DNA of 62,892 bases, filler included, from Nemertoderma westbladi (taxonomy: Eukaryota > Animalia > Xenacoelomorpha), in assembly GCA_032718475.1 (NCBI GenBank). It is 3 parts of 3 records of this genome, joined end to end, with 100 filler letters (N's around TTAATTAATTAA, not from the genome) between each part and the next. Parts side by side here need not be neighbours in the genome. Positions count along the whole stretch, not along the records: positions 15,209 to 47,016 come from JAUCBJ010002131.1; 2 more parts are not named here. One strand, written 5' to 3'. The translations under genes and the position numbers were made by a program. Below are positions 27,214 to 59,196 of the stretch, piece after piece; positions within the stretch are counted from its first letter, which is position 1, and each line of letters begins with the position of its first letter. The notes beneath the pieces were generated by a model. The model did not search any database, was not told the DNA's origin, and saw only the letters and a program-made list of their open reading frames with translations.

Positions 27214-27618
<405 letters not shown>

Positions 27619-29582: not shown

Positions 29583-31763
29583 AAAGACTCCCTACTATAG
29601 TAGATGAGCCTGAAATAATTAGGCCTGTTCTCGAAGCCACCCCTTCTGTGATAGAGACCCCTGTACTTCCAGAACCTAACTCTAAATTCCCTTTGCACAG
29701 TACTAAACTACCTGTATCCAGTAGGACAGTTCCTCAGTCAACTCCGGTCCTGGACGCCGAGCGAGACATTAACAATTTGTCACCCGTCGTCCCTCGTCTA
29801 CCCGCTACTATGTTGGCGGCTCCCGCTTCGGTGGTAGAGTGGGTGGATGAGCGACGGCGGGGGATGGATATTCTCCTCGGGCAGATGGAGGAGAATCAGG
29901 CACGCTCCTCCCAGCAGGTCCGAGAGTTGGAGGGTACTGTTCAACAGTTAAAGGGAACATTAAGAGAGAGTAGGTTAGAATTGCAGGAAGTGCAGCAGAG
30001 TATCGCATTAGAACGCGATAAGTTAGTAAATCTACAAAAGGGTATACCACCACCCTCTGTAACCATGTGTCAACCTGTTAGGTCTGAAGTATTTCATGCG
30101 CAAGGTGTGGAGCCTACACACATCTATACTGCTAGTGAAGTAGAAACTGCTATAGTAAACCCTATTAAGGGTAATTATAAACCTGTTGACAATGATATTC
30201 CATATAGACCTATATAATCCAAGAAATTTATATACCGATAACTTGATATTAAATAACACGATGGCCCAAGAAAGTTTTACGCGTCAAATGGCTAGAACCG
30301 AAGCCCGTCAAGCGGTAAAGGTGGGAGAGATCGTCAAGTTCAACGGAGATGAGATGAAATGGTTACCTTTTAATGAATATTATAAAGATAACATACAGAA
30401 CTCTGTGCTATCTAACGGAGAGAAACTTAGATTCCTCATCGAGTGCTTGGAAGGATCTCCCAAGTTAATGGCGTTAAAGTTTATTGGACATCCAGATGGA
30501 TTAAGACAAGTTTGGGATACACTAAACATCAGGTATGGTAATAGGAATAACATAGCTAGGTATTTGTATGCGAAATTAGTAGCGCCACGAAAGTTTCTTA
30601 GCACCGGGATTATAGAATTTTCCGATGAGATCCAGGACATTTGTAGACAATTAGATTGGCTAGGTAAGTCTCATGAGTATCAGAGTTCTATGGTTATTGG
30701 AGCTGTAGCATCTACCTTGCCAAAGGGTGGAGTGGGTACTCGTTGGGACAAAAGAGTTCTGTATATGATGGAACAACAACGAAGAGACCCTACCATGGCT
30801 GATCTCATGTCATTCTTAGATGGAGGAGTAAAATTACAGCTCCTAAAGCAGTCCAGAGAGAAGACACTGGAAAATAAGGTAAGTGAGAAACCCGTTTCTA
30901 GGAGAAAGGTAACACCAGTGTGTTATACAGACGACGGCGAAAGCCAGGCCTCTCAAGAGGAGAACAACGGGAAAGACACCAAAAGATCTTACTATGTCAA
31001 CAAAGCGCCTAAGGGCGTAAGTAAATTTAAGTCTCGAACTAGTGATAGGAGAGAACAGGTAACAAAAACTCCTCCTACTTCTCCTAAGAGAATTCATGTA
31101 AGAAAGCCTGAGGAAAGAACGAGTGTGCACAACACTACCAAAGGTAAAGTAAGTAACATCAAACCAAAATGTGCATTGTGTGACGGGCCCCACCGTTTAA
31201 GTGTGTGTGATGAATTCTTAAAGAAATCCCTAAAAGATAGGCGTGATGTCATGTGGGATAAGCGATTGTGTTATAATTGTCTCAGACAAGGACACCAACG
31301 GCGAACCTGTTACTCCGATGCGAGGTGTGCTAAGTGCGGCGCGAAACATCATATCTTGTTGCACACCGAATTTGAAAGAAACAGCCCGAGTCAGGTAAGT
31401 GAGTCCGAACTACATGTCCAATTCAGTGATGTGAACGACACTGACCAAAGTTCTGAGATGGAAGGATTCTACACGGATGAATTCTCAGACAAAAACGAAT
31501 CCTGTTATCTAATAAACACCGCAGTGTATCGAGCACTTACGTATGAGACTGAAACCGATAGTGAGCTCCCCCTAACTATTCCTGACCGACAACCATCTTG
31601 GAAAGCGCCAACTTCCAATGTAGGAATCCGAGAATTTCCCGTAGTGCAGTCAAGAGTAGGTTGGTACTTCACTGGACCTTCCCGTAGGACACTCATGGAA
31701 AGGCTACCCAAAGATCAGGTCCATCAGGTGAGTGAATGGGAAGAAGACATTAGTGAGGGATAG
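29583..31763 (+). pseudogene. A1 Gag, C-terminal part: DUF1759-like capsid region and three zinc knuckles
   Basis: KFNGDEMKWLPF..Y..NI....LSNGEKLRFL..CL.G and L..RYGN (Pao DUF1759), then CALCDGPHRLSVC, CYNCLRQGHQRRTC and CAKCGAKHHILLH. One frameshift near 30210. Confidence 0.92.
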
Positions 31764-31819
31764 ACAACAACAACTGAGGGAACACCATACTCCTCAGATA
31801 ATGACGATATTAACTCTAA

Positions 31820-32462
31820 TGTAGATCAATGGAGACATTGCCTTGGGACGATTAATCCAGCCGACATCGCTTCCAGATGAGCAACTCCTCAAGAACTGAT
31901 AGATACTCCAGACTGGTTAGGTGGACCCGACTTCCTAAGTAAAGAAGAGGATGAATGGCCTCCTCATCTCACCACGGCTGAGAATAGACAAGCCAAGGGA
32001 GCGGAGATAGTCAAACCTAAAACCCGGACGAGTAAATCAAAGTTATTTAAACCCACGATTGATCTGTCTGTACTACACATTTCAGGGGACGACGCTGTGG
32101 GTCTAAACTCCCCCGCCACAAATAACTCTGTTGTGGAAATCAGAGAAAGAGACTGGAAATCTGGAACACCAGACGTCTCGCAGGGACTCTCACCTCTCCT
32201 GCAGGGAGCGATAAACCACTATAGCTCCTGGAATCGGCTTTGTAAGGCCGTCGTGTATTTGAAGCGATGTTTCTATCGTCACTATTCCAGAACGAAGAGG
32301 AAACCTGGAATTGTATTCGAAACACAACAACTCAATCGCCCAGTTGGTCGTTTATGTTTACTGGAAAGAGACCGAGAACTGTCCGGAAACTATGGAAGGC
32401 AAGATACTCTTCCCACGACCACCTCCCTAATCCAACAAACATCTAGGGACTCCCCAACGTAA
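31820..32462 (+). pseudogene. A1 pol remnants (end of RNase H region fused to extreme integrase C-terminus)
   Basis: QWRHCLGTINPADIASR*..W.GGPDFL....WP, YSSWNRL..AV.Y and RPVGRLCLLE remain. Protease, RT and integrase core are absent. Confidence 0.85.
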
Positions 32463-34169
32463 CAGCGTCTGGAGTGGGTGTGTGACTATATTATTTTATA
32501 TTTTGTTTTTATTATTTTATATTTATGTATGTATTATTATGTAATTTTATTATAATCGTTTTCTTTAATTTTATTTAGTAGAATGTTATTTTAGCGATTA
32601 TTTAGTAGATTAGTGCAATATATATTAGTGTTTATTACTTACTTACTTATATTATATTATATATTTAGTGCAATGGCGAGAAATAATTCTTTTTCTCTTT
32701 CCTTACTGTCCGTATCATAATATAAATACGTGACTACAGTAAGATGAAATTTCCGTACTTATTAAAGTACAATAAAGCTCCTACTATACTCAAGTATTAT
32801 TGGTAAGTAGAGTATTAGGAATGCAAAGTTCAGATCCTCGTGTCTCGGCTAAACCAAGCTCTGGGTAGACCTTGGAAACGACTTGCCTCTTCTCACTGAC
32901 ATTGCTTCTTGCAATATTGCTCTCCTACCGTATATTAAATAATACATATAGTAGCGTGATGTCCCTTTAACAGTAGCGTAAAACGCAAAATCAATCTGTT
33001 AAACCCTTTGACCATCTGTAATTCTAGTCGATTAAGATATCGCGGCACCCACCAATATACTTGAAAGACAAAATTCTAGAATCAATGGTTAACGTCCCCA
33101 GACATGTTCTGGAATAAACCAGTGCCCATCTTAAATATTAACTATTAATATTTATAAAATCTGTCAAACAAATACAATAGAGTAAATACTTAAAAGATAA
33201 CTCTAGAAAATCTATAAATTAAAATCTGTTAAATTTTAGATCCTTTAAAATTCTAGTCGATTAAGATATCGTAGCACTTACCGATACTTTTAAAAGGACA
33301 AATTTCCTAGAATTAAGGATCCTAGTCCCCAGACATGCTCTGGAATAAAATTATGTCTGTTTTAATGATAAATAATAAAATTTACGGGAATAAATTTAAA
33401 TTCATCTTTTTAATGAATTTGATAAATTGTCATTTTTATACAATTTATAACATTCCCAAAATTCCATTAATTAATAGATCATGGGAGCGGAGATTCACCC
33501 TATTATGTATATTAGTGTGCGAGAATCTCCAATATATAGTCAATAGCCGATAAAATTCATAAAATCATGTATAAAGAAGAATATTGACAATTAAAGAATT
33601 ACTATTAAATAGCATCCCAGATCTGTATGCATGAGAATTACCCTAATTCTACTGCAAGCTTTCCATAATGTCACCATGGCAACAACCACGCTAGAATTAG
33701 AAGTGAGTTAAAAGAACAATAAAGCTTACCCCATTGAATAGCATAAGGAATAAATAGCACACTGCTAGTATCCAAGGATACATAATAATAACGTGGCATT
33801 CTGAAAGGCACTTGACTAACGGACAAATGGCCCGAATGTGTGCGGTTTGTGACAGTTGTGTGGAATTTGTGCGTTTATAGGTGAATGTTACTACTAAAGT
33901 GTGTTTACAGTAGCGAGTCGCAGTTGTGAAAGTAGCTCTACCTCTGCAGTAAGAACCTGAAGTAAATCTAAGCCCTTGGGACGGACAGTGGAGTGACTCG
34001 CGCTGGTTGTTGTTGTCGTTGTGCAGCTACTATGTTGGCGATAGGCACATCGGCGACAGTACATCAGCGCTGAGGATCTTGCGCTGTCCGGGGGCCATGA
34101 GGGGTAGGCAGCGACGCCCGCTAGCCTAATTATAACTAATTATATTATTTATAAACTCATATAGCAGCT

Positions 34170-35720
34170 ATGACTGAGTTGATATAAGATGATCTTGGTA
34201 TCAGGGAGCGATATACTCTACCGTTGCAAGCGTTTGTTGATAGCTTAATACGCGGCGACGCTAGTCCAACTACTACGGAGGACGATGGTCGTTATATCGA
34301 ACCGCCAATGTCCCAGGAGCAACTCACTCGTGAATTGGACTATCGAAAATTCACTGCTCACTATACGCATCGTAATGGTACGCATATGGACTTCTTAACT
34401 ACTGTTCATCCTATCGATTTACACAATACGGACGATGTCGACACCGAAAGGGAAATAGTCCTATTTAAATATCATACCCAGCGGAGTAGGAACGATAAAC
34501 TGAGAATCGAATGCGAAAATTCGATTCGAAATCGACTTGAAAGAGAAGATGTTAAAGAACCGGATAAACGCAGTGACTCCAACGTATATTTGGAATGCTT
34601 GAGAGAAACATTGTAAAACTAAAGAAAGATCACCCGCGTTTCCCCTAGAAGACGTGCGTCTTTGGTATTATTGCGATGAATGCCCAAGACCCAACCAACA
34701 AACGGAAGGACATAAACATCCGCGGAGACGTTGTTCTAAACACAGTTTTACTCGCTATATTTACGGGAGTTTCGAGCGAAACTTGTTTGATGTATCACCT
34801 ACGCTCGCTTGACTCAAACGATCCTTAAATAAACCTATGATCAGAGTTCCGGAATACTCGGTCAGACCTCCTCACTCCCTAGTGAGACCTCAGACTCTTG
34901 ATCCTAATAGTATCACGGATCCTCCCGAACTGTACTCACTGTTCAAAGATCTAGTGTTACCCGAACAATTAGTCGGTGGCACTCCGGTTGTGGGCTCCCT
35001 AAATATTTGCCCATCTTACCTAGCCGGATTGGGACGCGGACATCTAATATCGCCATTCAACCGTATCATCGTCCCAGTTTAACCCGATACAACCTGTCAC
35101 CGAGGTGGAGGAGAGAGTTGTACGAAACGCGTTGGACACTATTCGTCTAAAGATCGGAAAAGGAACCTACAATTGTTTAGAGAAACGTAAATTGCAGCAA
35201 CAAGTCCAAGCGGTAAACGAATTAGCTTTATCTCAGTTCGATCAGGAAATCCAGAATCTATAAGAAGATATCGAACTTGGACGACTCTACTTTCTGCAAG
35301 AGTTTGGACGAATGTTTTCAACAACAAGCGGAGGAAAATCAGCTCGAGGAGAAGCATATCGATTCCGATAGAGCCTGAGAACGCGAGTTGGAAAGAATCA
35401 TCAAACCGAGGAAATTTCTCTCTACACACGGTCCACCTACCGCTCTCGTGCAAACGACCCGTCAGGGACCAGTAAGAGCTGCTGTCTTAAAACGCGCTCT
35501 CAAGGTTGTTCGACCTCGTTCCACTGAGGTTGATACCGATCAACCGGGTACCTCGACCGGCGGATACACCGACCGTAACCCTAAACCTTCTGATGCAATT
35601 GCATTGCACCCTTCACCCAAGAGTTATAGCCCTCCTAGTAAAGTGGCTCGCCCCAAAGAGAAAGGGACTCTTGCTAGCCTCAAAAAACTGCGTAAACGCC
35701 GTTGGCGTAAGAAAGACTAA
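34170..35720 (+). pseudogene. Decayed accessory ORF (about 500 codons) between pol and 3' LTR of A1, unknown function
   Basis: ATG 34170 is in frame with the 34224 ORF (one TAA). Consecutive ORF pieces 34224-34616, 34837-35082 and 35388-35720 are bridged by open stretches. Cys/His cluster, coiled-coil and basic C-terminus. Confidence 0.65.
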
Positions 35721-35798
35721 CTGTTTAGAGTATTTTTATATTTTAGAAACTGTGATTTTTTATATTTTATAGAATTAAATCCCATTTTCTGGGAGCGG

Positions 35799-37005
35799 TG
35801 TAAAGGCTTTTGCGGATATAACTAGTCATTTTCCCCGCAAAGTACTCTGTAGGTGTTTTAGCGGACATAAAAAGCCGTTTTCTTACTGTGTAGGTGTTTT
35901 AGTGAACATAAAAAGCCATTTTTCTGTATGTGTACTTTAGCGGACATAACAAGCCATTTTATGCCGCAATACGCCAAAATACTCTTAATACAGTGTGGCT
36001 TAGATGACGAAATCTATCAGCTGATTTTGATGTCGATGTGGAGCTTTTTAACTCTCTTTGTTCAGCTCACTCGTCCAATCAGAGCGATTTTCATTTTATT
36101 TGCACAGAAGCCTACGGGAAATCGCGCAATGCATGACGGTCTTTGTTTACCTTTTTCCTGAGCCCAGAACATCGGCTTTGGAATTATTCTTAGTTTCAGA
36201 CTTTATCCAAACATTCGACGGCTTTGATTATAGGAACGTATAACTGTTATCCTGACACGGCTCAGCACAGAAAACTCATAGCAAACCAAACCAGACTCAC
36301 CTTACCTTTCACCGCATTATTTTACTGCTATTTACTGTCGGTTATTAATTGTTAGAAGTTGATGGATATGTTGTTATATTTGGAGAATATCGATAAATAA
36401 TCATAAAACCCCAATCTTCTTGATATACTGAAGGTTAGAGAGACCGGTTACCTGTAGCAATTGCGACTTACATTATAGTGGTTTTTGAGTGAATTGAATG
36501 CTATTTCATAATCCCTACATGTGTCAGTTGCTGTTCTCCTTATATATGATCAAATTTAGTGAAGGTCGGCAGATCAGTGTGCAGCAGTGTGCGGTAGTGT
36601 GCATGAGTGTGACAGATAACAAAGCATTTCCTAAAGAATGCGCTTTATACGAAAATCATTAGCCATCCCGTTGTGTTTAGTGTAAGTCATAAATCTGTTT
36701 ACATACTTAGAGCGCCACGTCCTAAAGGAACTGTTAATATTTCCCGAAAGTAAATAATATTTGTCAGAGATTATATATTAACAATCAATCGAATAGTACA
36801 GTAAGTCTACACCGCAATAAGGTCAGAGCCTCCGAATCCAGTCTCCCTTAACTGTGGGTGAATGGTGGCGCATAGGCTGGCTTCGGCTAATGTAACTTTA
36901 TATCTTATATGCAACAAATACTTGTTATAGGCTAAAGTCGATTTGTAAACTAGAAGACACCTAAAATTAGCGGGTTAAACTGCTAAAGGTCTAAAAGCGC
37001 GAACA
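35799..37005 (+). repeat. 3' LTR of A1 (1207 bp)
   Basis: Direct repeat of 18295-19473, preceded by the PPT and followed by the TSD. Confidence 0.95.
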
Positions 37006-37010
37006 GCGGC

Positions 37011-39066
37011 AGATCACTGTGAGGGCTATACTGCCTTTACAGAAGCAGTTAAGTTAGCAGCTGCAGAAACAGTTCCTGTATACCCTCGAAACAGGAAAAG
37101 GGCCCCTTGGACTGACAACAAAATTCAGAAGTGCCGAAATGACCTTCATAAGGCGCAGAAAGAGTCCCGACTCAAACAGACTACAGCGGCCAAGAATGCA
37201 GTTAAGGCTGCATCTAGGTCCCTGAACAGGCAGTACTCTGTTAATCTACAGGAGCTAATAAACCAACAGGTTGATGCCATCAATGATGCTGATGACAGCA
37301 GGCAATCATCCCAGGCATGGAAATCGATCAATTTGCTTACTGGGCGGAAAAGCCAACCAAACACCAAGGTTAAGGCTGAATCACCAGCCGATCGCCTCAA
37401 TGGTTGGAAAGCCCACTTTGAAAAGCTCCTCAATAATGACAGGGTATTGCCTGATAACTTTATAGAAGTAAAAGTGTCTGAGTCTGTACCCCCAGATATT
37501 TCCATTGGCGATATCTCCTTTGCAGAAGTGAAGGCTGCTGCAAAGAGCATTAAGACCAATCGTGCCAGTGGAGTAGATGGTGTTCCCCCTGAGGTCTTTA
37601 AAATACCTGAGTGTTTAAAGCTCATCTATCCCATCATAGTAGACATGTACCGAACAACAAGAGTCCCACAAGAAATGAAAACAAATAAGTTGGTGCCAGT
37701 TCCCAAGAAGGGTAACCTAACACTCTATGGTTCTTTTCGGGGAATCTCATTGATCTTGATTGCTGCAAAGCTATACAATAGAATTCTATTAAATCGCATC
37801 AGGAATCCCATTGAGAGACTGCTCCGTGGAAATCAGAATGGGTTCCGTAAAGGTCGTGGGACCATGGAGCCCATTTTGGCACTTAGAAGGATAATTGAAG
37901 AATTATCAAAAAAGAAAGACAGGCATCTGGCTGTTGTCTTTGTTGACTTCTTCAAGGCCATTGATTCAGTCTCTCGCTCACGTATGTTCAGCATACTTTC
38001 ATTATATGGGATTCCTGATGAAATTATTGCAGCAATCAGATCAATATACGATGGTTCGACAACATTTGTATCTACTGTTTTCGATGACACAGAACCATTT
38101 GAAGTGTTATGGGGCGTCCTCCAGGGAGGCACACTTGCACCATTCTTGTTCATAATTGTGGTTGACTATGTTCTACGCTTGTCCTTATGATAACTCCACC
38201 TACTGGCTCCAGAAGTCGAGGAAATCCTGTCAAGTACCTATCTGATCTAGACTTTGCTGATGACTTAAGAGTCTCTCAGAATCACTAGAGGGAGCCCAAC
38301 GGCTCCTCAGCTCATTAGAACATGCTGCTTCTAGTATTGGTCTTTTTATTAACTCCAGAAAGACCAAAATTTTAACAGTTAACTTTGAAAGTCCTCAGCA
38401 AGTCTCTGATCGGATGAGCATAAGCTCAAAAGATGGTATGCTTGAGCATGTGGACGACTTCTGTTATCTGGGATCATGGATCCGGAAGTCAGATGAGGAC
38501 CTTCGAATACGTAAGGGAAAGGCATGGGCAGCCTTGAATAGGCTTTCCAGGATTTGGAACTCCGAGAATTAATCGGAAACTTAAGGTCCGATTATTTAGA
38601 GCAGCAGTAGTTCCAGTACTTCTCTATGGGAGTCCATGCTGGGCTCTAACTGCTGAGGACACCAAATCTCTGGATGGCACATTCACAAAAATGCTACGCC
38701 GGGTTCATTGTGTCAAGTACAATGCACACATCTCCAACCAGACACTATATAACATTGGAGGTGTCTCATTGGTTCCCCCAAGCTTGACACTAGAACAAAA
38801 TCGCCTCCGCTTTGCAGGAGATTGCTTTCGCCGTGAGGACCATCCAGTGCATAATCTTGTACTTTGGCAACCTCATGGAGTGAATAAACATGGTGGACAG
38901 ACCATGACTTTCTTGAGACGCATCTTAAAGGACATTGGCCTTGAAGATGCGGATGATCTAGCAAATGTCAGATAGGGAGTTGTGGCGGCGCAATTTTGTC
39001 GACAAGCCGGCACAGCTTTCTTAAAAATGCAGCTGCAATTCAGCATGCCGATCCTAGTAGTAGTAG
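37011..39066 (+). mobile_element. RTE-type LINE, 3' part (reverse transcriptase, 3' UTR, (TAG)4 tail)
   Basis: RASGVDG, PKKGNL, RGISL, QNGFRKGRG, FVDFFKA.DSV, GVLQG..LAPFLF, DLDFADD, FCYLGS, LLYG and RLRFAG motifs with stops. TAGTAGTAGTAG tail at 39055-39066. Confidence 0.92.
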
Positions 39067-42682: not shown

Positions 42683-45600
42683 TGTAAAAGCTTTTGCGGA
42701 CATAACAAGTCATTTTTCTCCGCAATATACCGTGTAGGTGCTTTAGCGGACATAACAAGCCATTTTCTCCGCAATGTACCGTGTAGGTGCTTTAGCGGAC
42801 ATAACAAGCCATTTTCTGCCGCAATGCGCCTAATACTCTAAAAGACTGGAACTCAGATGACGAAATCTGTCAGCTGATTTACTGTAAACGTGGAACCTCT
42901 CTTTGTTCTGATCAGCCAATCAGAGCGATTTTCATTTTGTCTTGTACAGAGGCCTACGGAAAACCGCGCAATGCATTACGGTCTTTGTTTACCTTTTCTG
43001 AGCCCCAGAACACCGGCTTAGAATTCTTCTGTGCTTCTGTAGAAGTTTCAGACTTTGGCCAAACATTAGATGGCTTTGATTACAGGAATGTAAATCTATT
43101 ATCTGGCTGGTAACATTACTGCAGTAATACCGACTGCAACGCAACCTGGTCACCTGGTCACCTGGAGCACTGCAATCCACATATCAACCAAACTGCTGAA
43201 CTGACTTGCATAAGTAACATATACTGATTGTTCACCGCATTATTTACTGTCTGTTATTAATTGTTATATATTGATGGATATGTTGATATATTTGGAGAAT
43301 ACCGATAAATAATCATAAAACCCCCAATCTTCTTGATTACTGAAGGTAAGAGGGACCGGCTACCTGTAGCAATTCGACTTACATTATAGTGGTTTTTGTG
43401 TGAATTAAATGCTATTTCATAATCCCTACATGTGTCAGTTGCTATCCTCCTTATATATGATCAAATTCAGTGACGGTCGGCAGATCAGTGTGCAGTAGTG
43501 TGAAGTAGTGTGAAGTGGTGTGAAGTGGTGTGACAGATAATAAAGCATCTCCTAAAGAATGCGCTATTTACGAAACTCAGAGGCCATCTCGTTGTGTTTA
43601 GTATAAGTCATAACTCTGTTTTATATACTTAAAGCGCCCATCCTAAAGGAACTGTTAATATTTCCCCGAAAGTGAATAATATTGTCAGAGATTATATAGT
43701 AACGATCAATCGAATAATACAGTAGGTCTGCACCGCAATCATTTCAAAGCATCCGAATCCAGTCTCCCTTAACAGTGGGTGAATGATCGCGCATAGACTG
43801 GCTTCGGCTAGTGTAACTTTATGTGCACTAAATACTTGTTATAGGCTAAAGTCGATTTATAAACAAGAGGACACCTAAAATTGGCAGGTTAAACTGCTAA
43901 AGGTCTGAAAGCGCGAACAATAATAGATTTTAGTTTCTGATTGCAGTGTAGGCAATAAATATTTGTCTATTGTTCTGGTAAGAACAATAATAGATTTAAA
44001 CTCTTGATTGCACCGTAGGCAATAAAGTCGAAGGTACCGGTCGAACGGTAAGCTGTAGGCCTAACTGCCCAACTACCCGAACCGGTACTTACAGGTACAA
44101 CAGTATTATTCGATTTTGATAATTATATACCGGTAGGTCTTGATATTTAATCAGGGACTGTAGCCCTGGTTTTTTATTGGGATTTTACTTATTTCTGTCA
44201 GTTTTATTTATCTGTAAGTGTAATAATGAGCAGAAGGCGTGTAAGCCCGCTCAAATTGTACAGATAATTTGTAGGCTGGATTGTTGTCTGGCTGTTGTTA
44301 GGTCTGAACAGATTGCAGTGTGTGTAGAGTGTATGTCCGATAAAGTACTAGTTAGGAAGGTGGGGGCATCCAGTGCTGTAAGGTAAATCCCCCCCCCCCC
44401 CCCAGAAAGAATAAGTCGTACTACTCAGTTAGAACGCATACTAACTAACCATTTCGGAGTCTGCATATACTGTAGTTTATTTAGGCTTGCCAGTAGTCTG
44501 CCAGCATTTGGTCTGTATTTTGTTTGTATAGTCTGTACGGGTAGCGTAATATTTATTATTCAGAGTCTATGCGAGTATTCGCAACCTACATAACCCCCCA
44601 AGTTTATTCCTACAGTAATTGTGCTTGTTATACATACCGTTATAGTTAAATTAACCCCGGTACTACATCAGGGCTGCTTGGCGTAGGTAAAGACTGGTGA
44701 TTTTATGCTCTGGTCACTCCAGCAGATACCGTGGTTCTTTTAGCTGTACAAGTATATTTAACTGCTGGTTATTTGTTGTATAAGTACTTGTACCTAATTT
44801 AGGGTTTAGTGTACAGTGCTTTCCGAAAGTAATTAGTGTGTAGGCAGTATATTTGTGTTGTAAAGTGGTTAATAGGCACGTTAGCTCTGGTTGGCTGCGG
44901 TAATTAACTTCTAGGTAAGGACACTCTGGGTACATAATGTAGTACTTATAGTTTAAGACTATAAGTCATCAGACAGTGGTATTTTCTTATCTGGACAGCG
45001 CAATTTATTTACTACTACTTTATTATTTTCAAATACCGTAGTTTCCTGTCCATTTGTAATAACCAGAAATTCTAACTCCTTGTTAGGCTGGTTTGTAGAT
45101 TTCTTGTAAAATTACCCTAAAATTTGTACGTATAACCTTTTAGTGTTTATTTAGAGATTGTAATCTCACACAGTAATTGTATGTAATTTGTAGTAATAAG
45201 TAACTTAGTAAAGTAGAATTATTTGTTTTAGTATCCAACAAGTAGCACTTCACTGAGAGCGTTCAGCTTCTGTGCAGTGACTCCTTACCCAGAAATAATA
45301 ACATTTATTTCAAACCTTGTCAAAAAACCCTTGTACGGGTACATAATATATTATAAATCAACTCAAACCGATTTATAAAATAGTAGGCCTGTTATACACC
45401 AATTAGGTCTTAATATCAGTTGAACTACTGCTTGATAACAGTAATAAGTAAAGGGAAGTAACCATAAAAATTCAGAAATTCAGTTATTATAAAATAATTG
45501 ACATTACCGGTATTTATGGTAGGCTTATTATATTTATTTATATAAATTTAGGCCGAAATTATATACCGGTATTCTGTAATTAATCCTAGTCTATAATAAT

Positions 45601-47016
45601 ACTTATACATACTATAAGTGTATGCTGTATACCGGTATTTACGGTAGGCTTATTATATATATTTATATAAATTTATGCTGAAATTATATACCGGTATTCT
45701 GTGACTAAACCTAGTCTGTAATAATACTTATATATACTATAAGTGTATACCGGTATTTTAATATATTATATATATATCACGTTACACTGAGTAACGGTAT
45801 CGGTAATTAATTACTAGGCTTACAGTTGTTACTGAATTACTAGATTTACTTTAACTGTCGTTATAGTAGTAGGCATTCAACTGTACAATCAAACATGGCT
45901 GACACAAAACAAACACTGTCAGATAGTCTCCTAGAAAGAACAGTCTGAGACTCAGATAGGAGTGCAGAACATCTGAGACCGAAGTCCAAGTCCCCTCCTA
46001 CTGTAAGAAAGGTCATCCCTCCAGTAGTAGTATCAGACCCTAGGCTAGTCAAGCACCGTAGGTCTATCATAGGCACTCGTGCTCAAGTCAAGCGGGACCA
46101 AGAGGCAGCTGTTAAACAGCAGCAACACCCGAACCGAGAACTTATTTCTCAGCGGACCGATAACTCTAGCAGTTCAGACACTGTAGAGTTGACACCCGAA
46201 ATCGGAGCAAGGATGGCAGAAGCGGTTTATTCGGATCCACTTCTAATTCTTCCTGAAGCCGTACTCACTAGAGTATTGATCGTGGTGGAGGAACATCAAA
46301 TTGATTGGGCGAGAAGTAAGCGATCGACCAAGGACAGTTATGCGGGATACACAATGGAGGAACTAAAGTCTATTGTCGAGACACAATGGAACTTTCCCGG
46401 ACCCGGACTCCCGTTTAACTTATCGGAAGCTGCCTGGGAGGACTTATATCGGATGGGAGTAGTAAAGGATACTCGAGATCCAGCTGTGTGGAAGAGGTTG
46501 GCAGCAGGATATGTCCAGGCATTCTTCAGTTCTTTGGAGCGACTAGAAGAACACCTATTCCAACAAAGACAAGGACCTCAAGAGCAGGGAGAGCTGCTTT
46601 ATCAAGTTAGAGAACGAATCTTACGGATCAGACTGATCCTTTCCGCTTTTGAGGAAGCCTCGAAGAGAAGCCAAGACACGTCGTTGCAAGTTGCCGTAAA
46701 GACTTGGTTCCAACGGGTGAGTCTTAAAGTCCAAGGAACGACACAATGGAAAATTCAGCTAACTGAGCGCGCGACCCACGGAGAATCAACAGACGCTACA
46801 GCTATATAGCTATAAGTTACATCAGAGAAACCTCAGAAGAAGGACGCTATTGACATCTATCTGTCGGACTATCAACGATTTATAGGTGACAAAGAGTTAA
46901 GGAGAAGGCTAGCTGGACTTCACCCTAATAGTGAGGGAGCCAAATTTGTGTTAGACTCATTAGATGCGGAAATGTTAGCCTCGGAGCAGGCTAAATTTGA
47001 TGAAAGCATCCTCATC
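42683..47016 (+). mobile_element. Bel/Pao family A copy A2: 5' LTR (42683-43919), ~2-kb leader, gag start (45895), cut by gap
   Basis: LTR TGTAAAAGC...GCGCGAACA is homologous to A1. Leader and gag are colinear with 19474-22490. Gag has stops at about 45946 and 46807. Confidence 0.93.
43920..43930 (+). promoter_or_regulatory. Putative self-priming primer-binding site of A2
   Basis: ATAATAGATTT, flush with the LTR end, is the reverse complement of LTR 43092-43102 (AAATCTATTAT). Confidence 0.75.
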
Positions 47017-47144: not shown

Positions 47145-50100
47145 CTATAAAGATTCTACAAAGATTCTGTACAAGTTATACAACAAGTAGTACAGACTAC
47201 AAAGATTCTGTACAAGTTATACAACAAGTAGTACAGACTACAAAGATTCTGTACAAGTTATACAACAAGTAATACAGACTACAATGATTATGTACAAGTT
47301 ATACAACAAGTAGTACAGACTATAAAGATTCTGTACAAGTTATACAACAAGTAGTACAGACTACAAAGATTCTTTACAAGTTATACAACAAGTAGTACAG
47401 ACTACAATGATTCTGTACAAGTTATACAACAAGTAGTACAGACTACAAAGATTCTGAACAAGTTATACAACAAGTAGTACAGACTACAAAGATTCTTTAC
47501 ATGTTATACAACAAGTAGTACAGACTACAAAGATTCTGTACAAGTTATACAACAAGTAGTACAGACTACAAAGATTCTGTACAAGTTATACAACAAGTAG
47601 TACAGAATACAAAGATTCTGTACAAGTTATACAACTAGTAGTACAGACTACAAAGATTCTTTACATGTTATACAACAAGTAGTACAGACTACAAAGATTA
47701 TGTACAAGTTATACAACAAGTAGTACAGACTACAAAGATTCTGTACAAGTTATACAACAAGTAGTACAGACTACAAAGATTCTGTACAAGTTATACAACA
47801 AGTAGTACAGACTACAAAGATTCTTTACATGTTATACAACAAGTAGTACAGACTACAAAGATTCTCTACAAGTTATACAACAAGTAGTACAGACTACAAA
47901 GATTCTTTACAAGTTATACAACAAGTAGTACAGACTACAAAGATTCTGTACAAGTTATACAACAAGTAGTACAGACTACAAAGATTCTTTACATGTTATA
48001 CAACAAGTAGTACAGACTACAAAGATTCTTTACAAGTTATACAACAAGTAGTACAGACACAAAAGATTCGGTACAAGTTATACAACAAGTAGTACAGACT
48101 ACAAAGATTCTTTACATGTTATACAACAAGTAGTACAGACTACAAAGATTATGTACAAGTTATACAACAAGTAGTACAGACTACAACGATTCTGTACAAG
48201 TTATACAACAAGTAGTACAGACTACAAAGATTCTGTACAAGTTATACAACAAGTAGTACAGACTACAAAGATTCTGTATAAGTTATACAACAAGTAGTAC
48301 AGACTACAAAGATTCTTTACAAGTTATACAACAAGTAGTACAGACACAAAGATTCGGTACAAGTTATACAACAAGTAGTACAGACTACAAATATTCTGTA
48401 CAAGTTATACAACAAGTAGTACAGACACAAAGATTCTGTATAAGTTATACAACAAGTAGTACAGACTACAAAGATTCTGTACAAGTTATACAACATATAG
48501 TACAGACTACAAAGATTCTGTACAAGTTATGCAACAAGTAGTACAGACACAAAGATTCTGTATAAGTTATACAACAAGTAGTACAGACACAAAGATTCTG
48601 TATAAGTTATACAACAAGTAGTACAGACTACAAAGATTCTGTACAAGTTATACAACAAGTAGTACAGACTACAAAGATTCTGTACAAGTTATACAACAAG
48701 TAATACAGACTACAATGATTATGTACAAGTTATACAACAAGTAGTACAGACTATAAAGATTCTGTACAAGTTATACAACAAGTAGTACAGACTACAAATA
48801 TTCTTTACAAGTTATACAACAAGTAGTACAGACTACAATGATTCTGTACAAGTTATACAACAAGTAGTACAGACTACAAAGATTCTGAACAAGTTATACA
48901 ACAAGTAGTACAGACTACAAAGATTCTTTACATGTTATACAACAAGTAGTACAGACTACAAAGATTCTGTACAAGTTATACAACAAGTAGTACAGACTAC
49001 AAAGATTCTGTACAAGTTATACAACAAGTAGTACAGACTACAAAGATTCTGTACAAGTTATACAACAAGTAGTACAGACTACAAAGATTCTGTACAAGTT
49101 ATACAACAAGTAGTACAGACTACAAAGATTCTGTACAAGTTATACAACAAGTAGTACAGACTACAAAGATTCTGTACAAGTTATACAACAAGTAGTACAG
49201 ACTACAAAGATTCTGTACAAGTTATACAACAAGTAGTACAGACTACAAAGATTCTGTACAAGTTATACAACAAGTAGTACAGACTACAAAGATTCTGTAC
49301 AAGTTATACAACAAGTAGTACAGACTACAAAGATTCTGTACAAGTTATACAACAAGTAGTACAGACTACAAAGATTCTGTACAAGTTATACAACAAGTAG
49401 TACAGACTACAAAGATTCTTACAGTTATACAACAAGTAGTACAGACTACAAAGATTCTGTACAAGTTATACAACAAGTAGTACAGACTACAAAGATTCTG
49501 TACAAGTTATACAACAAGTAGTACAGACTACAAAGATTCTGTACAAGTTATACAACAAGTAGTACAGACTACAAAGATTCTGTACAAGTTATACAACAAG
49601 TAGTACAGACTACAAAGATTCTGTACAAGTTATACAACAAGTAGTACAGACTACAAAGATTCTGTACAAGTTATACAACAAGTAGTACAGACTACAAAGA
49701 TTCTTTACAAGTTATACAACAAGTAGTACAGACTACAAAGATTCTGTACAAGTTATACAACAAGTAGTACAGACTACAAAGATTCTGTACAAGTTATACA
49801 ACAAGTAGTACAGACTACAAAGATTCTGTACAAGTTATACAACAAGTAGTACAGACTACAAAGATTCTGTACAAGTTATACAACAAGTAGTACAGACTAC
49901 AAAGATTCTGTACAAGTTATACAACAAGTAGTACAGACTACAAAGATTCTGTACAAGTTATACAACAAGTAGTACAGACTACAAAGATTCTTTACATGTT
50001 ATACAACAAGTAGTACAGACTACAAAGATTCTTTACAAGTTATACAACAAGTAGTACAGACACAAAAGATTCGGTACAAGTTATACAACAAGTAGTACAG

Positions 50101-53100
50101 ACTACAAAGATTCTTTACATGTTATACAACAAGTAGTACAGACTACAAAGATTATGTACAAGTTATACAACAAGTAGTACAGACTACAACGATTCTGTAC
50201 AAGTTATACAACAAGTAGTACAGACTACAAAGATTCTGTACAAGTTATACAAAAAGTAGTACAGACTACAAAGATTCTGTATAAGTTATACAACAAGTAG
50301 TACAGACTACAAAGATTCTTTACAAGTTATACAACAAGTAGTACAGACACAAAGATTCGGTACAAGTTATACAACAAGTAGTACAGACTACAAATATTCT
50401 GTACAAGTTATACAACAAGTAGTACAGACACAAAGATTCTGTATAAGTTATACAACAAGTAGTACAGACTACAAAGATTCTGTACAAGTTATACAACATA
50501 TAGTACAGACTACAAAGATTCTGTACAAGTTATGCAACAAGTAGTATAGACACAAAGATTCTGTATAAGTTATACAACAAGTAGTACAGACACAAAGATT
50601 TTGTATAAGTTATACAACAAGTAGTACAGACTACAAAGATTCTGTACAAGTTATACAACATATAGTACAGACTACAAAGATTCTGTACAAGTTATGCAAC
50701 AAGTAGTACAGACACAAAGATTCTGTATAAGTTATACAACAAGTAGTACAGACACAAAGATTCTGTACAAGTTATACAACAAGTAGTACAGACTACAAAG
50801 ATTATGTACAAGTTATACAACAAGTAGTACAGACTACAAAGATTCTGTATAAGTTATACAACAAGTAGTACAGACTACAAAGATTCTGTACAAGTTATAC
50901 AACAAGTAGTGCAGACTACAAAGATTCTGTACAAGTTATACAACAAGTAGTACAGACTACAAAGATTCTGTACAAGTTATACAACAAGTAGTTCCGACTA
51001 CAAAGATTCTGGACAAGTTATACAACAAGTAGTACAGACTACACAAAGATTCTGTACAAGTTATACAACATATAGTACAGACTACAAAGATTCTGTACAA
51101 GTTATACAACAAGTAGTACAGACTACAAAGATTCTGTACAAGTTATACAACAAGTAGTACAGACTACAAAGATTATGTACAAGTTATACAACAAGTAGTA
51201 CAGACTACAAAGATTCTGTATAAGTTATACAACAAGTAGTACAGACTACAAAGATTCTGTACAAGTTATACAACAAGTAGTGCAGACTACAAAGATTCTG
51301 TACAAGTTATACAACAAGTAGTACAGACTACAAAGATTCTGTACAAGTTATACAACAAGTAGTTCCGACTACAAAGATTCTGGACAAGTTATACAACAAG
51401 TAGTACAGACTACAAAGATTCTGTACAAGTTATACAACAAGTAGTGCAGACTACAAAGATTCTGTACAAGTTATACAACAAGTAGTACATACTACAAAGA
51501 TTCTGTACAAGTTATACAACAAGTAGTGCAGACTACAAAGATTCTGTACAAGTTATACAACAAGTAGTACAGACTACACAAAGATTCTGTACAAGTTATA
51601 CAACATATAGTACAGACTACAAAGATTCTTTACAAGTTATACAACAAGTAGTACAGACTACAAAGATTCTGTATAAGTTATACAACAAGTAGTACAGACT
51701 ACAAAGATTCTTTACAAGTTATTCAACAAGTAGTACAGACACAAAGATTCGGTAAAAGTTATACAACAAGTAGTACAGACTACAAATATTTTGTACAAGT
51801 TATCCAATAAGTAGTACAGACTAAAAAGATTCTGTACAAGTTATACAACAAGTAGTACAGACTACAAAGATTCTGTACAAGTTATACAACAAGTAGTACA
51901 GACACAAAGATTCTGTACAAGTTATACAACAAGTAGTACAGACTACAAAGATTCTGTACAAGTTATACAACAAGTAGTACAGACTACAAAGATTCTGTAC
52001 AAGTTATACAACAAGTAGTACAGACACAAAGATTCTGTACAAGTTATACAACAAGTAGTACAGACTACAAAGATTCTGTACAAGTTATACAACAAGTAGT
52101 ACAGACACAAAGATTCTGTACAAGTTATACAACAAGTAGTACAGACTACAAAGATTCTGTACAAGTTATACAACAAGTAGTACAGACACAAAGATTCTGT
52201 ACAAGTTATACAACAAGTAGTACAGACACAAAGATTCTGTACAAGTTATACAACAAGTAGTACAGACTACAAAGATTCTGTACAAGTTATACAACAAGTA
52301 GTACAGACTACAAAGATTCTGTATAAGTTATACAACAAGTAGTACAGACTACAAAGATTCTGTATAAGTTATACAACAAGTAGTACAGACTACAAAGATT
52401 CATTACAAGTTATACAACAAGTAGTACAGACTACAAAGATTTCTGTATAAGTTATACAACAAGTAGTACAGACTACAAAGATTCATTACAAGTTATACAA
52501 CAAGTAGTACAGACTACAAAGATTGTTTACAAGTTATGCAACAAGTAGTGCAGACTACAAAGATTCTGTACAAGTTATACAACAAGTAGTACAGACGCAA
52601 AGATTCTGTATAAGTTATACAACAAGTAGTACAGACACAAAGATTCTATATAAGTTATACAACAAGTAGTACAGACTACAAAGATTCTGTACAAGTTATA
52701 CAACAAGTAGTACAGACACAAAGATTCTGTACAAGTTATACAACAAGTAGTACAGACTACAAAGATTCGTTAAAAGTTATACAACAAGTAGAAAAAGACT
52801 ACAAAGATTCTGTACAAGTTATACAACATATAGTACAGACTACAAAGATTATGTACAAGTTATAGAACAAGTAGTACAGACTACAAAGATTCTGTACAAG
52901 TTATAGAACAAGTAGTACAGACTACAAAGATTCTGTATAAGTTATACAACAAGTAGTACAGACTACAAAGATTCTGTACAAGTTATACAACAAGTAGTAC
53001 AGACTACAAATATTTTGTACAAGTTATACAATAAGTAGTACAGACTACAAAGATTCTGTACAAGTTATACAACAAGTAGTACAGACTACAAAGATTCTGT

Positions 53101-56100
53101 ACAAGTTATACAACAAGTAGTACAGACACAAAGATGCTGTACAAGTTATACAACAAGTAGTACAGACTACAAAGATTCTGTACAAGTTATACAACAAGTA
53201 GTACAGACACAAAGATTCTGTACAAGTTATATAACAAGTAGTACAGACTACAAAGATTCTTTACAAGTTATACAACAAGTAGTACAGACACAAAGATTCT
53301 GCACAAGTTATACAACAAGTAGTACAGACTACAAAGATTGTTTACAAGTTATGCAACAAGTAGTGCAGACACAAAGATTCTGTACAAGTTATACAACAAG
53401 TAGTACAGACTACAAAGATTCGTTAAAAGTTATACAACAAGTAGTACAGACTACAAAGATTCTGTACAAGTTAAACAACATATAGTACAGACTACAAAGA
53501 TTCTGTACAAGTTATAGAACAAGTAGTACAGACTACAAAGATTCTGTACAAGTTATAGAACAAGTAGTACAGACTACAAAGATTCTGTATATAAGTTATA
53601 CAACAAGTAGTAGAGACTACAAAGATTCTGTACAAGTTATACAACAAGTAGTACAGACTACAAAGATTCTGTACAAGTTATACAACAAGTAGTACAGACT
53701 ACAAAGATTATGTACAAGGTATACAACAAGTAGTACAGACATAAAGATTCTGTACAAGTTATACAACAAGTAGTACAGACTACAAAGATTCTGTACAAGT
53801 TATACAACAAGTAGTACAGACTACAAAGATTCTGTACAAGTTATACAACAAGTAGTACAGACTACAAAGATTCTGTACAAGTTATACAACAAGTAGTACA
53901 GACACAAAGATTATGTACAAGTTATACAACAAGTAGTACAGACTACAAAGATTCGTTAAAAGTTATACAACAAGTAGTACAGACTACAAAGATTCTGTAC
54001 AAGTTATACAACAAGTAGTACAGACTACAAAGATTCTGTACAAGTTATACAACAAGTAGTACAGACTACAAAGATTCTTTACAAGTTATACAACAAGTAG
54101 TACAGACACAAACATTCGGTACAAGTTATACAACAAGTAGTACAGACTACAAAGATTCTGTACAAGTTATACAACAAGTAGTACATACTACAAAGATTCT
54201 GTACAAGTTATACAACAAGTAGTGCAGACTACAAAGATTCTGTACAAGTTATACAACAAGTAGTACAGACTACAAAGATTCTGTACAAGTTATACAACAA
54301 GTAGTTCCGACTACAAAGATTCTGGACAAGTTATACAACAAGTAGTACAGACTACAAAGATTCTGTACAAGTTATACAACAAGTAGTGCAGACTACAAAG
54401 ATTCTGTACAAGTTATACAACAAGTAGTACATACTACAAAGATTCTGTACAAGTTATACAACAAGTAGTGCAGACTACAAAGATTCTGTACAAGTTATAC
54501 AACAAGTAGTACAGACTACACAAAGATTCTGTACAAGTTATACAACATATAGTACAGACTACAAAGATTCTTTACAAGTTATACAACAAGTAGTACAGAC
54601 TACAAAGATTCTGTATAAGTTATACAACAAGTAGTACAGACTACAAAGATTCTTTACAAGTTATTCAACAAGTAGTACAGACACAAAGATTCGGTAAAAG
54701 TTATACAACAAGTAGTACAGACTACAAATATTTTGTACAAGTTATACAATAAGTAGTACAGACTACAAAGATTCTGTACAAGTTATACAACAAGTAGTAC
54801 AGACTACAAAGATTCTGTACAAGTTATACAACAAGTAGTACAGACACAAAGATTCTGTACAAGTTATACAACAAGTAGTACAGACTACAAAGATTCTGTA
54901 CAAGTTATACAACAAGTAGTACAGACTACAAAGATTCTGTACAAGTTATACAACAAGTAGTACAGACACAAAGATTCTGTACAAGTTATACAACAAGTAG
55001 TACAGACTACAAAGATTCTGTACAAGTTATACAACAAGTAGTACAGACACAAAGATTCTGTACAAGTTATACAACAAGTAGTACAGACACAAAGATTCTG
55101 TACAAGTTATACAACAAGTAGTACAGACTACAAAGATTCTGTACAAGTTATACAACAAGTAGTACAGACTACAAAGATTCTGTATAAGTTATACAACAAG
55201 TAGTACAGACTACAAAGATTCTGTATAAGTTATACAACAAGTAGTACAGACTACAAAGATTCATTACAAGTTATACAACAAGTAGTACAGACTACAAAGA
55301 TTCTGTATAAGTTATACAACAAGTAGTACAGACTACAAAGATTCATTACAAGTTATACAACAAGTAGTACAGACTACAAAGATTGTTTACAAGTTATGCA
55401 ACAAGTAGTGCAGACTACAAAGATTCTGTACAAGTTATACAACAAGTAGTACAGACGCAAAGATTCTGTATAAGTTATACAACAAGTAGTACAGACACAA
55501 AGATTCTATATAAGTTATACAACAAGTAGTACAGACTACAAAGATTCTGTACAAGTTATACAACAAGTAGTACAGACACAAATATTCTGTACAAGTTATA
55601 CAACAAGTAGTACAGACTACAAAGATTCGTTAAAAGTTATACAACAAGTAGTACAGACTACAAAGATTCTGTACAAGTTATACAACATATAGTACAGACT
55701 ACAAAGATTATGTACAAGTTATAGAACAAGTAGTACAGACTACAAAGATTCTGTACAAGTTATAGAACAAGTAGTACAGACTACAAAGATTCTGTATAAG
55801 TTATACAACAAGTAGTACAGACTACAAAGATTCTGTACAAGTTATACAACAAGTAGTACAGACTACAAATATTTTGTACAAGTTATACAATAAGTAGTAC
55901 AGACTACAAAGATTCTGTACAAGTTATACAACAAGTAGTACAGACTACAAAGATTCTGTACAAGTTATACAACAAGTAGTACAGACACAAAGATGCTGTA
56001 CAAGTTATACAACAAGTAGTACAGACTACAAAGATTCTGTACAAGTTATACAACAAGTAGTACAGACACAAAGATTCTGTACAAGTTATATAACAAGTAG

Positions 56101-58118
56101 TACAGACTACAAAGATTCTGTACAAGTTATACAACAAGTAGTACAGACTACAAAGATTCTGCACAAGTTATACAACAAGTTGTACAGACTACAAAGATTC
56201 TTTACAAGTTATACAACAAGTAGTACAGACACAAAGATTCTGCACAAGTTATACAACAAGTAGTACAGACTACAAAGATTGTTTACAAGTTATGCAACAA
56301 GTAGTGCAGACACAAAGATTCTGTATAAGTTATACAACAAGTAGTACAGACTACAAAGATTCGTTAAAAGTTATACAACAAGTAGTACAGACTACAAAGA
56401 TTCTGTACAAGTTAAACAACATATAGTACAGACTACAAAGATTCTGTACAAGTTATAGAACAAGTAGTACAGACTACAAAGATTCTGTACAAGTTATAGA
56501 ACAAGTAGTACAGACTACAAAGATTCTGTATATAAGTTATACAACAAGTAGTAGAGACTACAAAGATTCTGTACAAGTTATACAACAAGTAGTACAGACT
56601 ACAAAGATTCTGTACAAGTTATACAACAAGTAGTACAGACTACAAAGATTATGTACAAGGTATACAACAAGTAGTACAGACATAAAGATTCTGTACAAGT
56701 TATACAACAAGTAGTACAGACTACAAAGATTCTGTACAAGTTATACAACAAGTAGTACAGACTACAAAGATTCTGTACAAGTTATACAACAAGTAGTACA
56801 GACTACAAAGATTCTGTACAAGTTATACAACAAGTAGTACAGACTACAAAGATTCTGTACAAGTTATAGAACAAGTAGTACAGACTACAAAGACTCTGTA
56901 TATAAGTTATACAACAAGTAGTAGAGACTACAAAGATTCTGTACAAGTTATACAACAAGTAGTACAGACTACAAAGATTCTGTACAAGTTATACAACAAG
57001 TAGTACATACTACAAAGATTATGTACAAGGTATACAACAAGTAGTACAGACATAAAGATTCTGTACAAGTTATACAACAAGTAGTACAGACTACAAAGAT
57101 TCTGTACAAGTTATACAACAAGTAGTACATACTACAAAGATTCTGTACAAGTTATACAACAAGTAGTACAGACTACAAAGATTCTGTACAAGTTATACAA
57201 CAAGTAGTACAGACTACAAAGATTTTTTACAAGTTATACAACAAGTAGTACAGACTACAAAGATTCTGTATAAGTTATACAACAAGTAGTACAGACTACA
57301 AAGATTCTGTACAAGTTATACAACAAGTAGTACAGACTACAAAGATTCTGTACAAGTTATACAACAAGTAGTACAGACACAAATATTCTGTACAAGTTAT
57401 ACAACAAGTAGTACAGACTACAAAGATTATGTACAAGTTATACAACAAGTAGTACAGACTACAAAGATTCTGTACAAGTTATACAACAAGTAGTACAGAC
57501 TACAAAGATTCTGTACAAGTTATACAACAAGTAGTACAGACACAAAGATTCTGTATAAGTTATACAACAAGTAGTACAGACTACAAAGATTCTGTACAAG
57601 TTATACAACATATAGTACAGACTACAAAGATTCTGTACAAGTTATACAACAAGTAGTACAGTCTACAAAGATTCTGTACAAGTTATACAACAAGTAGTAC
57701 ATACTACAAAGATTCAGTACAAGTTATACAACAAGTAGTACAGACTACAAAGATTCTGTACAAGTTATACAACAAGTAGTACAGACACAAAGATTCTGTA
57801 CAAGTTATACAACAAGTAGTGCAGACACAAAGATTCCGTACAAGTTATACAACATATAGTAGAGACTACAAAGATTCTGTACAAGTTATACAACAAGTAG
57901 TACAGACTACAAAGATTCTGTACAAGTTATACAACAAGTAGTACAGACTACAAAGATTCTTTACAAGTTATACAACAAGTAGTACAGACACAAAGATTCT
58001 GTACAAGTTATACAACAAGTAGTACAGACTACAAAGATTCTGTACAAGTTATACAACAAGTAGTACAGACACAAAGATTCCGTACAAGTTATACAACATA
58101 TAGTAGAAACTACAAAGA
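47145..58118. repeat. 41-bp tandem satellite, about 265 copies
   Basis: Consensus TACAAAGATTCTGTACAAGTTATACAACAAGTAGTACAGAC, period 41, with 39- and 43-bp variants. Confidence 0.98.
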
Positions 58119-58443
58119 CTATGTTTTGTATGGTTTACTTTGGTATCTCATTGTTAGGTGTAGGCCTATAATAAAAGCATTCAATACTGAAACAAACACA
58201 TACACAAAACAAAGTCCTACAGCAAACACCATAAAATTAAGTGTAATTCCAGTTCTCTAAGTGAACCCTTCATAACACTTCTACACAGTGTCTTCGTTTT
58301 TAAGGCTATTTCAAATATCTACCGAATGTCTTACATAAGGATAAGGATCTATAATTCATATTTCTGATTTACTGTATCATTTTCTGCTAGATACTAGTGT
58401 TTTCTTTTAATGAAAATGTTATATATAATTTAATTTATTTCAG

Positions 58444-59196
58444 TTCTATGGCAAACAGTGACTGGATCACTTAGATGGGTGAGTGCTGGCCAAGCTGGAG
58501 TTTGGGGTGTAAACGCAAATGGTAATATTCACTACCGAGAAGGGACATATGGATCATGCAGTATTGGAACGAGATGGATTGGTATCTCTGGGGGACTCAA
58601 CAATATTGCTGTTGGAAATGATATTGTTTGGGGTGTTGATTCTAACAATCAAATTTACTGGCGAGCTGTCAGTCAGCAAAATCCAACTGGCAATGCCTGG
58701 ACAATGATTGACGGAGGACTCACCAGGATAACAGTCGACTCATCCAGCAACGGCGTCTGGGGTATAAATTCCGATAACAATGTCTACCAGAGATTAGGTA
58801 TATCGGCCTCAACACCTGGCGGTACATCATGGTTTCAAATCATTGGTGCAAGCATGGCAGACATCAGCTTCGGAGCATCAGGCCTTTGGGGGATTCATTC
58901 ACAAGGTCTACATTACATGCAAGGCACCTTTGATTCCAATAACATAGTTGGCAGCTTTACAGGATGGGCAGCTGAAGATTGGCTAACGATTAGTTCAGGA
59001 GCAGATGGTGCTTTATGGGCTACAAAGATAAACCATGAAATATACACAGCCACGGTGAAAGAAGGGAATATAAATCCAGTTTGGCAACGTATAGAAGGTG
59101 GACTGAAGCAAGTTAGCGTCAGTGATTGGAATGGTGTGGTTTGGGGAGTGGATAATAATGACTTGATATGGTTCAAAATGGGAGAGTGTCCCCAAG
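58444..59196 (+). CDS. Internal exon encoding a tectonin/tachylectin-1-type (TECPR) beta-propeller lectin domain
   Basis: Repeats of W..I.G.L..ISVG....VWGVN....IY.R, about six blades. Acceptor TTTATTTCAG| and donor CAAG|GTAAGA give a 753-bp open, symmetric phase 1-1 exon. Confidence 0.88.

Follow-up and report, generated by a model that had tools for sequence, protein, structure and literature searches.

We found that two LTR retrotransposons in the DNA of Nemertoderma westbladi, A1 and A2, each carry an 11-nt LTR segment that pairs without a mismatch with the 11 nt directly behind the 5′ LTR, the position of the primer-binding site, and that the two elements differ at three positions on either side of this duplex with every pair retained. 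From these two family-A elements, which form the informative set in that both contain segment and site, we consider it probable that the LTR segment, instead of a tRNA, is the primer of reverse transcription, in a self-priming reaction like that of Tf1.

Results

Layout and affiliation of the elements

The window (the whole 62,892-nt stretch of DNA analysed here) is animal DNA and rich in repeats; the coordinates of the features discussed below are collected in Table 1. Judged by their sequence, A1 and A2 are sister LTR retrotransposons of the BEL/Pao type. The LTRs of A1 (∼1.2 kb) are 96.4% identical to each other, and a 5-bp target-site duplication (18290–18294 and 37006–37010) flanks the element. 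DUF1759 was detected in A1 gag with a Pfam E-value of 5.6e-11, gag and the RNase H-end fragment matched BEL polyproteins (BLASTP E-values of 5e-17 and 2.5e-13, respectively), and gag displays a triple zinc-knuckle pattern that we take to be a BEL/Pao trait; a word search with A1 gag returned one homologue. No protease, reverse transcriptase (RT), or integrase was found in the A1 copy, which is therefore not self-mobile. The internal region of A2 is 89% identical to that of A1 over 3 kb by self-comparison, and the placement of A2 in BEL/Pao comes solely from this identity; its 3′ end lies beyond the N gap starting at 47017. TG…CA LTR ends, a short target-site duplication, and a purine tract before the 3′ LTR are present both in A1 and in B1, a second element nested inside the gag of A1.

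The ICTV profile of the Belpaoviridae gives LTRs of 0.2–1.2 kb and a primer site of 18 nt that is complementary to tRNA-Arg or tRNA-Gly, and describes BEL/Pao replication as poorly understood and tRNA-primed (PMC8742986). A1 resembles this family in its DUF1759 gag, zinc knuckles, RNase H-end fragment, 1.2-kb TG…CA LTRs, and short purine tract, whereas A1, A2, and B1 have no tRNA-type site and the copies lack most of pol. A1 and A2 are best described as BEL/Pao-derived elements whose primer site sets them apart from the family profile, and we do not file them as formal members.

A1 itself sits inside a LINE, with the endonuclease side at 17756–18436 and the RT side at 36979–38190, and a related LINE piece lies at 7121–8301. 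An AT-rich, LTR-like stretch behind a purine-rich run within A1 (32480–32960) is single copy in the window. Positions 742–2610 hold the broken RNase H–integrase end of another BEL/Pao element, interrupted by a family-A LTR. Elsewhere, the window contains a 41-bp satellite (47156–58118, ∼268 copies, 94% matches), an open frame with tectonin (beta-propeller lectin) repeats whose matches reach only 27–34% (58434–59297), and a long inverted-repeat element (11102–12341) that is probably a non-autonomous DNA transposon. A 20-nt motif conserved across the window's family-A LTRs had no match in metagenome or viral contigs, and a BEL alignment search of the viral contigs found no relatives.

Table 1. 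Positions of the family-A and family-B features within the window.
Feature	Position	Strand	Remarks
Third family-A LTR, 3′ part	1–741	+	Without segment and primer site; pol of another BEL element next to it
B2, 3′ LTR of a B1 sister	14189–14779	−	9-mer at 14393–14385; own primer site outside the window
A1	18295–37005	+	BEL/Pao-type LTR retrotransposon; edges from self-comparison and element-end analysis
A1 5′ LTR	18295–19473	+	
A1 LTR segment, putative self-primer	18736–18746	+	11/11 Watson-Crick with 19474–19484
A1 predicted U5-leader helix	19273–19510	+	19273–19290 with 19493–19510; 16/18 pairs
A1 primer-binding site	19474–19484	+	No TGG; directly after LTR
B1	23051–29577	+	BEL-like element inside A1 gag; 542-bp LTRs, 98.7% identical; 5-bp duplication
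A1 gag region	30159–32400	+	DUF1759, zinc knuckles, then RNase H-end fragment
A1 3′ LTR	35799–37005	+	Second copy of segment at 36240–36250
A2 5′ LTR	42683–43919	+	TG…CA, 1237 bp; homologous to A1 LTRs
A2 5′ arm of possible second helix	43083–43089	+	Pairs with 43933–43939
A2 LTR segment, putative self-primer	43092–43102	+	3′ end 43102; 11/11 Watson-Crick with 43920–43930
A2 variable stretch directly behind segment	43103–43240	+	39/78 aligned columns identical to A1
A2 U5 arm of predicted U5-leader helix	43726–43741	+	15/16 pairs with 43938–43953
Predicted 7-bp hairpin near LTR end	43881–43900	+	7/7 pairs in each of the window's four family-A LTRs
A2 primer-binding site	43920–43930	+	No TGG; directly after LTR
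A2 leader arm of predicted U5-leader helix	43938–43953	+	
A2 duplicated LTR end, primer site, and leader start	43960–44026	+	22-nt spacer and second copies
A2 N-terminal gag-region frame	45949–46809	+	Homologous to A1 21310–23100

Pairing between the LTR segment and the primer site

Both primer sites start at the first base past the LTR-terminal CA, and the 3′ base of the segment pairs with this base, so that extension would copy U5. The sequence-only reading of this DNA had described segments that differ between A1 and A2 at positions 2, 4, and 7, sites that differ at the pairing partners 10, 8, and 5, and duplexes that remain 11/11 Watson-Crick across 740–830 nt. All of this was borne out in both elements, with start-to-start distances of 738 nt (A1) and 828 nt (A2), and 727–817 nt lying between segment and site. 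When the partners are exchanged, the A1 segment forms seven Watson-Crick pairs and one G-U pair of 11 with the A2 site, and the A2 segment pairs 8/11 with the A1 site. The primer helix contains no G-U pair in any copy, and every change in it is double-sided.

The segment is in register between the two elements, being preceded by a gap-free conserved block in which 43 of the 48 aligned A1–A2 columns are identical. On the primer-site side, MAFFT placed a 2-nt gap inside the 11-mer of A2; if this placement is right, two of the three changes are a single event. The gap most likely belongs behind the 11-mer, because contigs of run X1 combine the A2-type 11-mer with a linker of A1's length (joints 43931/43932 to 44002).

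The duplication at the A2 primer site is spanned by contigs of runs X1 and X2. Its second primer-site copy (43987–43998), absent from the sequence-only reading, pairs 12/12. The spacer (43960–43981) contains the LTR-end/primer-site junction in inverted form, less 3 nt; this stretch resembles the primer plus the first cDNA bases and is possibly the trace of a template switch, although the match is short and may be due to chance. An AATAAA is conserved ∼35 nt behind the primer-site start (19509–19514, 43954–43959, and 44021–44026), and there is none in the A1 LTRs.

Chance and palindrome tests

The pairing might have no function at all and stem from chance, from a near-palindrome, or from a local duplication. 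The sequences are AT-rich, the sample is n = 2, and the A1 segment and its site share 10/11 bases in a same-strand comparison; in A2, however, same-strand identity falls to 4/11, and on this ground the near-palindrome was rejected. We simulated three plus three independent substitutions over 1,000,000 trials, scored for an intact 11/11 duplex, and 216 and 500 trials per 1,000,000 retained it; when the changes are counted as two events, the chance is ∼1 in 300. The complement of the site occurred in 25 and 29 of 20,000 shuffled LTRs. Self-pairing is also present in a second family (B1), and the control BEL loci described below do not show it, all of which makes a functionless origin very improbable. 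The sequence-only reading held that the covariation excludes chance and near-palindromy; the rejection of both stands, although "excludes" slightly overstates what can be drawn from two elements and from two to three events.

Self-pairing in the nested family B

The zinc-finger region of B1 is BEL-like (best E-value 8e-7). The first nine bases after its LTR (23593–23601) pair 9/9 with its own LTR at 23387–23395, in a 9-mer unrelated in sequence to the family-A 11-mers, and the complement of the site was found in 66 of 20,000 shuffled LTRs. The 9-mer of B2 differs from that of B1 at four of nine positions, with conserved flanks. The sole other match in the window to the predicted partner of the B2 9-mer, at 9716, was rejected as the B2 primer site, as no LTR end precedes it. 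In family B a TATA-like box is conserved 72 nt before the end of the segment, which makes it probable that the RNA does not begin with the segment. B1 also has an LTR-end hairpin (23568–23587), kept in B2 with an altered loop, and a second hairpin (28998–29026) immediately before the purine tract.

tRNA-type sites in the window and in control elements

No TGG was found within 30 bases after the LTR in A1, A2, or B1, the absence of TGG being the measure by which a tRNA match was judged, and tRNA and Rfam scans of the window detected neither tRNA genes nor Rfam families. As controls, we used 88 loci recovered with an alignment of eight BEL polyproteins from the DNA of other animals in metagenomes and genome bins, and examined the 49 in which sequence is available upstream of the match. 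We took CA, 0–6 nt, and TGG plus a downstream motif as the strict tRNA-type pattern. This pattern fits 34 of the 49 loci, which are partly redundant and in several cases have little upstream sequence; self-complement among the 34 is at most 6 nt in 33 and 9 nt in one (L045). Of the remaining 15, a TGG site is visible by eye in five, and in ten the stretch examined contains no LTR junction. Because the controls, which were found through the integrase of another element and are not the closest kin of A1, are mostly of tRNA type with short self-complement, the self-pairing design is not general in BEL/Pao, which agrees with the ICTV profile (PMC8742986). A 13-nt self-complement at locus L081 was rejected, being absent from the printed 188-bp LTR; a TGG site follows a 50-nt duplication there. 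L081 (6733–12605) and L082 (6571–12765) are complete BEL/Pao elements with paired LTRs on long contigs of two bacterial genome bins, and are probably host DNA in the assembly.

In retroviruses, the primer site is restored by a fixed tRNA primer (PMC4549124), which agrees with the earlier argument that such a primer would forbid drift of the kind seen here. Since a fixed tRNA resets the site, and yet the drift of the site is mirrored in the LTR, the LTR segment is the likely partner.

The duplex could instead be selected for a role other than priming, in packaging, dimerisation, or a translation switch that masks the site, with a host RNA (a tRNA half or another small RNA) priming there or nearby. 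Half-tRNA primers without TGG are described for copia groups (PMC6317226), and the leader does hold other selected helices. One host RNA, however, cannot fit the A1 and A2 11-mers together with the unrelated B1 9-mer; the primer helix stops exactly at the LTR edge, which is the required priming start, and TGG is absent from the 30 bases behind it. We regard this explanation as unlikely.

Neighbouring helices and RNA folding

The predicted U5-leader helix is the leader's best duplex at the homologous U5 stretch in A1 and A2, and was matched by 9/300 shuffles for A2 and 18/300 for A1. It contains one double-sided change, from A-U to C-G, and the allele shares at the two partners of this change disagree in the run contigs (38–53% versus 73–86%). 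The leader duplex is weak for the A1 3′ LTR (53/300 shuffles) and for the second copy in A2 (194/300); in B1 no leader duplex stood above chance (290/300 shuffles as good), and a duplex on the 5′ side of the site was at chance level (42–262 of 300 shuffles as good). The U5-leader helix is predicted to cross the primer helix, forming a pseudoknot that would be part of a Tf1-like "pretzel".

The predicted hairpin near the LTR end survives two one-sided changes in family A. A2 had also been said to keep a second helix next to the primer helix: this helix does form 7/7 pairs in A2, two of them G-U, yet having no double-sided change it is possible rather than established. It forms 6/7 pairs in A1 and 6/7 with the second site copy of A2, and it shares two to three bases with another helix. 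In general, the helices neighbouring the primer helix hold wobbles and mismatches, and their changes are mostly one-sided.

In pseudoknot-free folding of A2, the primer helix had a probability of 0 at three start points and of 0.11 with the second copy, perhaps because the U5-leader helix crosses it. For A1 the probability was 0.9 only if the RNA starts at the segment or 6 nt before it, and 0 when the RNA starts from 46 nt upstream.

These folds bear on the alternative of priming in trans or from the other end, in which the segment would be the 3′ terminus of a short LTR transcript, made separately or processed, or of a genomic RNA ending in the 3′ LTR; neither fold-back nor an RNase H cut would then be needed. 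The cis helix is unfavoured in A2 and has to bridge a long 727–817 nt, whereas in B1 it is strongly predicted (at least 0.95 for 8/9 cis-helix pairs). The segment occurs in both LTRs, with conserved sequence and promoter-like motifs upstream of it, but the A1 LTRs contain neither AATAAA nor ATTAAA, and no GT-AG splice within the A1, A2, or B1 LTRs beats the match length of the unspliced LTR. On balance, priming in trans or from the other end seems an improbable account.

A splice-junction primer was rejected for A1, A2, and B1, as GT-AG splicing never lengthens the complement over that of the unspliced LTR. In both A1 and A2 an acceptor-like YAG (43078–43086) precedes the segment by 6 nt, and the family-A LTRs keep a donor-like site (43344–43352); we take these motifs to be splice-type signals, and cis- or trans-splicing could shape the 5′ end of the RNA.

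Conservation across family A in run contigs

We mapped the contigs of three DNA runs from two samples on A2. Summed depth over 43070–43109 was 42,495, 31,312, and 18,036, and in the next bin 1.4, 0, and 25; nine of the 15 contig joints listed (of 33) leave at 43101–43110. The depth drop and the joints together indicate that conservation ends at the 3′ end of the segment. The drop at 43103 fits cleavage behind the putative primer; the stretch behind the segment is largely private to A2, and a simple lack of constraint would therefore look alike. At primer-site position 5, the A1 letter accounts for 63–71% of the depth (among the 40 of 237 rows listed), and both 11-mer types are present in the runs, each with different letters behind it.

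Within 43270–43950, the 3′ half of the LTR has a summed contig depth several to 30 times that of the 5′ half and leader; this depth does not equal copy number, and one bin near 43350 is low. This half may be common to more distant subfamilies, as it is to the LTR at 1–741. In run X5 (organism B; RNA is a guess), the 3′ part of the LTR is covered and the segment lies outside the coverage. At 43906 a loose end of this run passes from the LTR end into a site that is AT-rich, lacks TGG, and departs from A2 at positions 8 and 10; family A may also be present in a second species.

Discussion

A proposed model for self-priming

For the LTR segment to act as primer, the 5′ part of the transcript would fold back and bring the segment onto the primer site. 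Cleavage of the RNA behind the segment (43102 in A2), for which the RNase H of an autonomous helper is the probable agent, would free the segment's 3′ end to be extended into U5. Plus-strand synthesis would then copy the primer into a new primer site, and a change in the LTR segment would reach the site one cycle later, with no need for a second chance mutation. The covariation probably arises in part from such copying of the primer into the primer site, and we lean somewhat towards copying together with selection over selection alone; the sequence-only reading had named either as a sufficient source. Copying would fit a primer helix that is free of G-U pairs and has double-sided changes only, whereas its neighbours wobble and change mostly on one side. 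Copying is not guaranteed, because the primer sequence is not known to be inherited in yeast Ty1. In retroviruses, copying of the primer into the primer site is described (PMC4549124). More tentatively, and with doubt prevailing, a BEL/Pao lineage may have independently swapped the tRNA primer for its own RNA, cut inside the 5′ leader rather than at the capped end, and rewritten the site in every cycle; primer and site would then change together like a lock and key specific to the family, and would do so faster than the sequence flanking them.

Relation to known self-priming elements

In Tf1, the RNA's first 11 bases anneal to the site and RNase H cleaves behind them (PMC7175516), and two further duplexes join site-flanking sequence to LTR sequence downstream of the primer (PMC10085805). 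The primer pairing in A1/A2 has the same length of 11 nt (PMC7175516). With Tf1/Tf2 of Schizosaccharomyces pombe, Tj1, Tosmo1-3, and the Tf1/sushi group of Ty3/gypsy chromoviruses, A1/A2 share the absence of a tRNA site and an LTR complement of the site directly after the 5′ LTR (PMC7175516, PMC10085805, PMC4600332), as well as an extra duplex, predicted in A1/A2, that joins the leader to LTR sequence lying downstream of the primer (PMC10085805). Unlike in Tf1/sushi elements, the gag (DUF1759) and RNase H fragment of A1 are of BEL/Pao and not gypsy type, and A1 is not a member of that group. A1/A2 further differ from the Tf1 group in a loop of 727–817 nt and in that their self-priming is predicted from sequence; unlike in Tf1, only one of the two side duplexes of the pretzel is supported, in family A only, and the segment may not be formed by the first bases of the RNA.

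For Tcn1 chromoviruses and the copia TAR lineage (Houba, Osr-1), self-priming was likewise predicted from the sequence, by a rule that asks for an LTR complement of at least 10 nt starting 0–5 nt after the LTR (PMC6317226). A1 and A2 have such a complement, and that of B1 is one base short; Tcn1 and TAR elements are plant and fungal gypsy or copia elements, whereas A1, A2, and B1 are animal elements of BEL/Pao type. The fungal GalEa copia elements also have no tRNA-type site, but differ in that the partner of the site is a conserved local hairpin, with no LTR complement found (PMC5445492).

Self-priming has been shown for Tf1 and predicted for Tf1/sushi, Tcn1, and the copia TAR lineage (PMC6317226, PMC4600332, and PMC2864245). 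A literature search by title and start of abstract, with subscription papers, Repbase reports, and supplements outside its range, found no report of self-priming in BEL/Pao, and two BEL/Pao surveys, judged by term counts, do not discuss primer sites (PMC3118150, PMC554778).

We conclude that the feature is real and that it probably works like Tf1 without A1 or A2 being a Tf1/sushi element. If self-priming in A1/A2 is true, all three LTR-retrotransposon superfamilies would have members that dropped the tRNA, which would bear on whether self-priming or tRNA priming came first, a question raised in PMC3601003. Self-priming would, moreover, account for BEL elements that annotation tools report as lacking a primer site. 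A family that is abundant and has at least two primer types would offer a natural test of primer copying versus stepwise selection as the source of long-range covariation.
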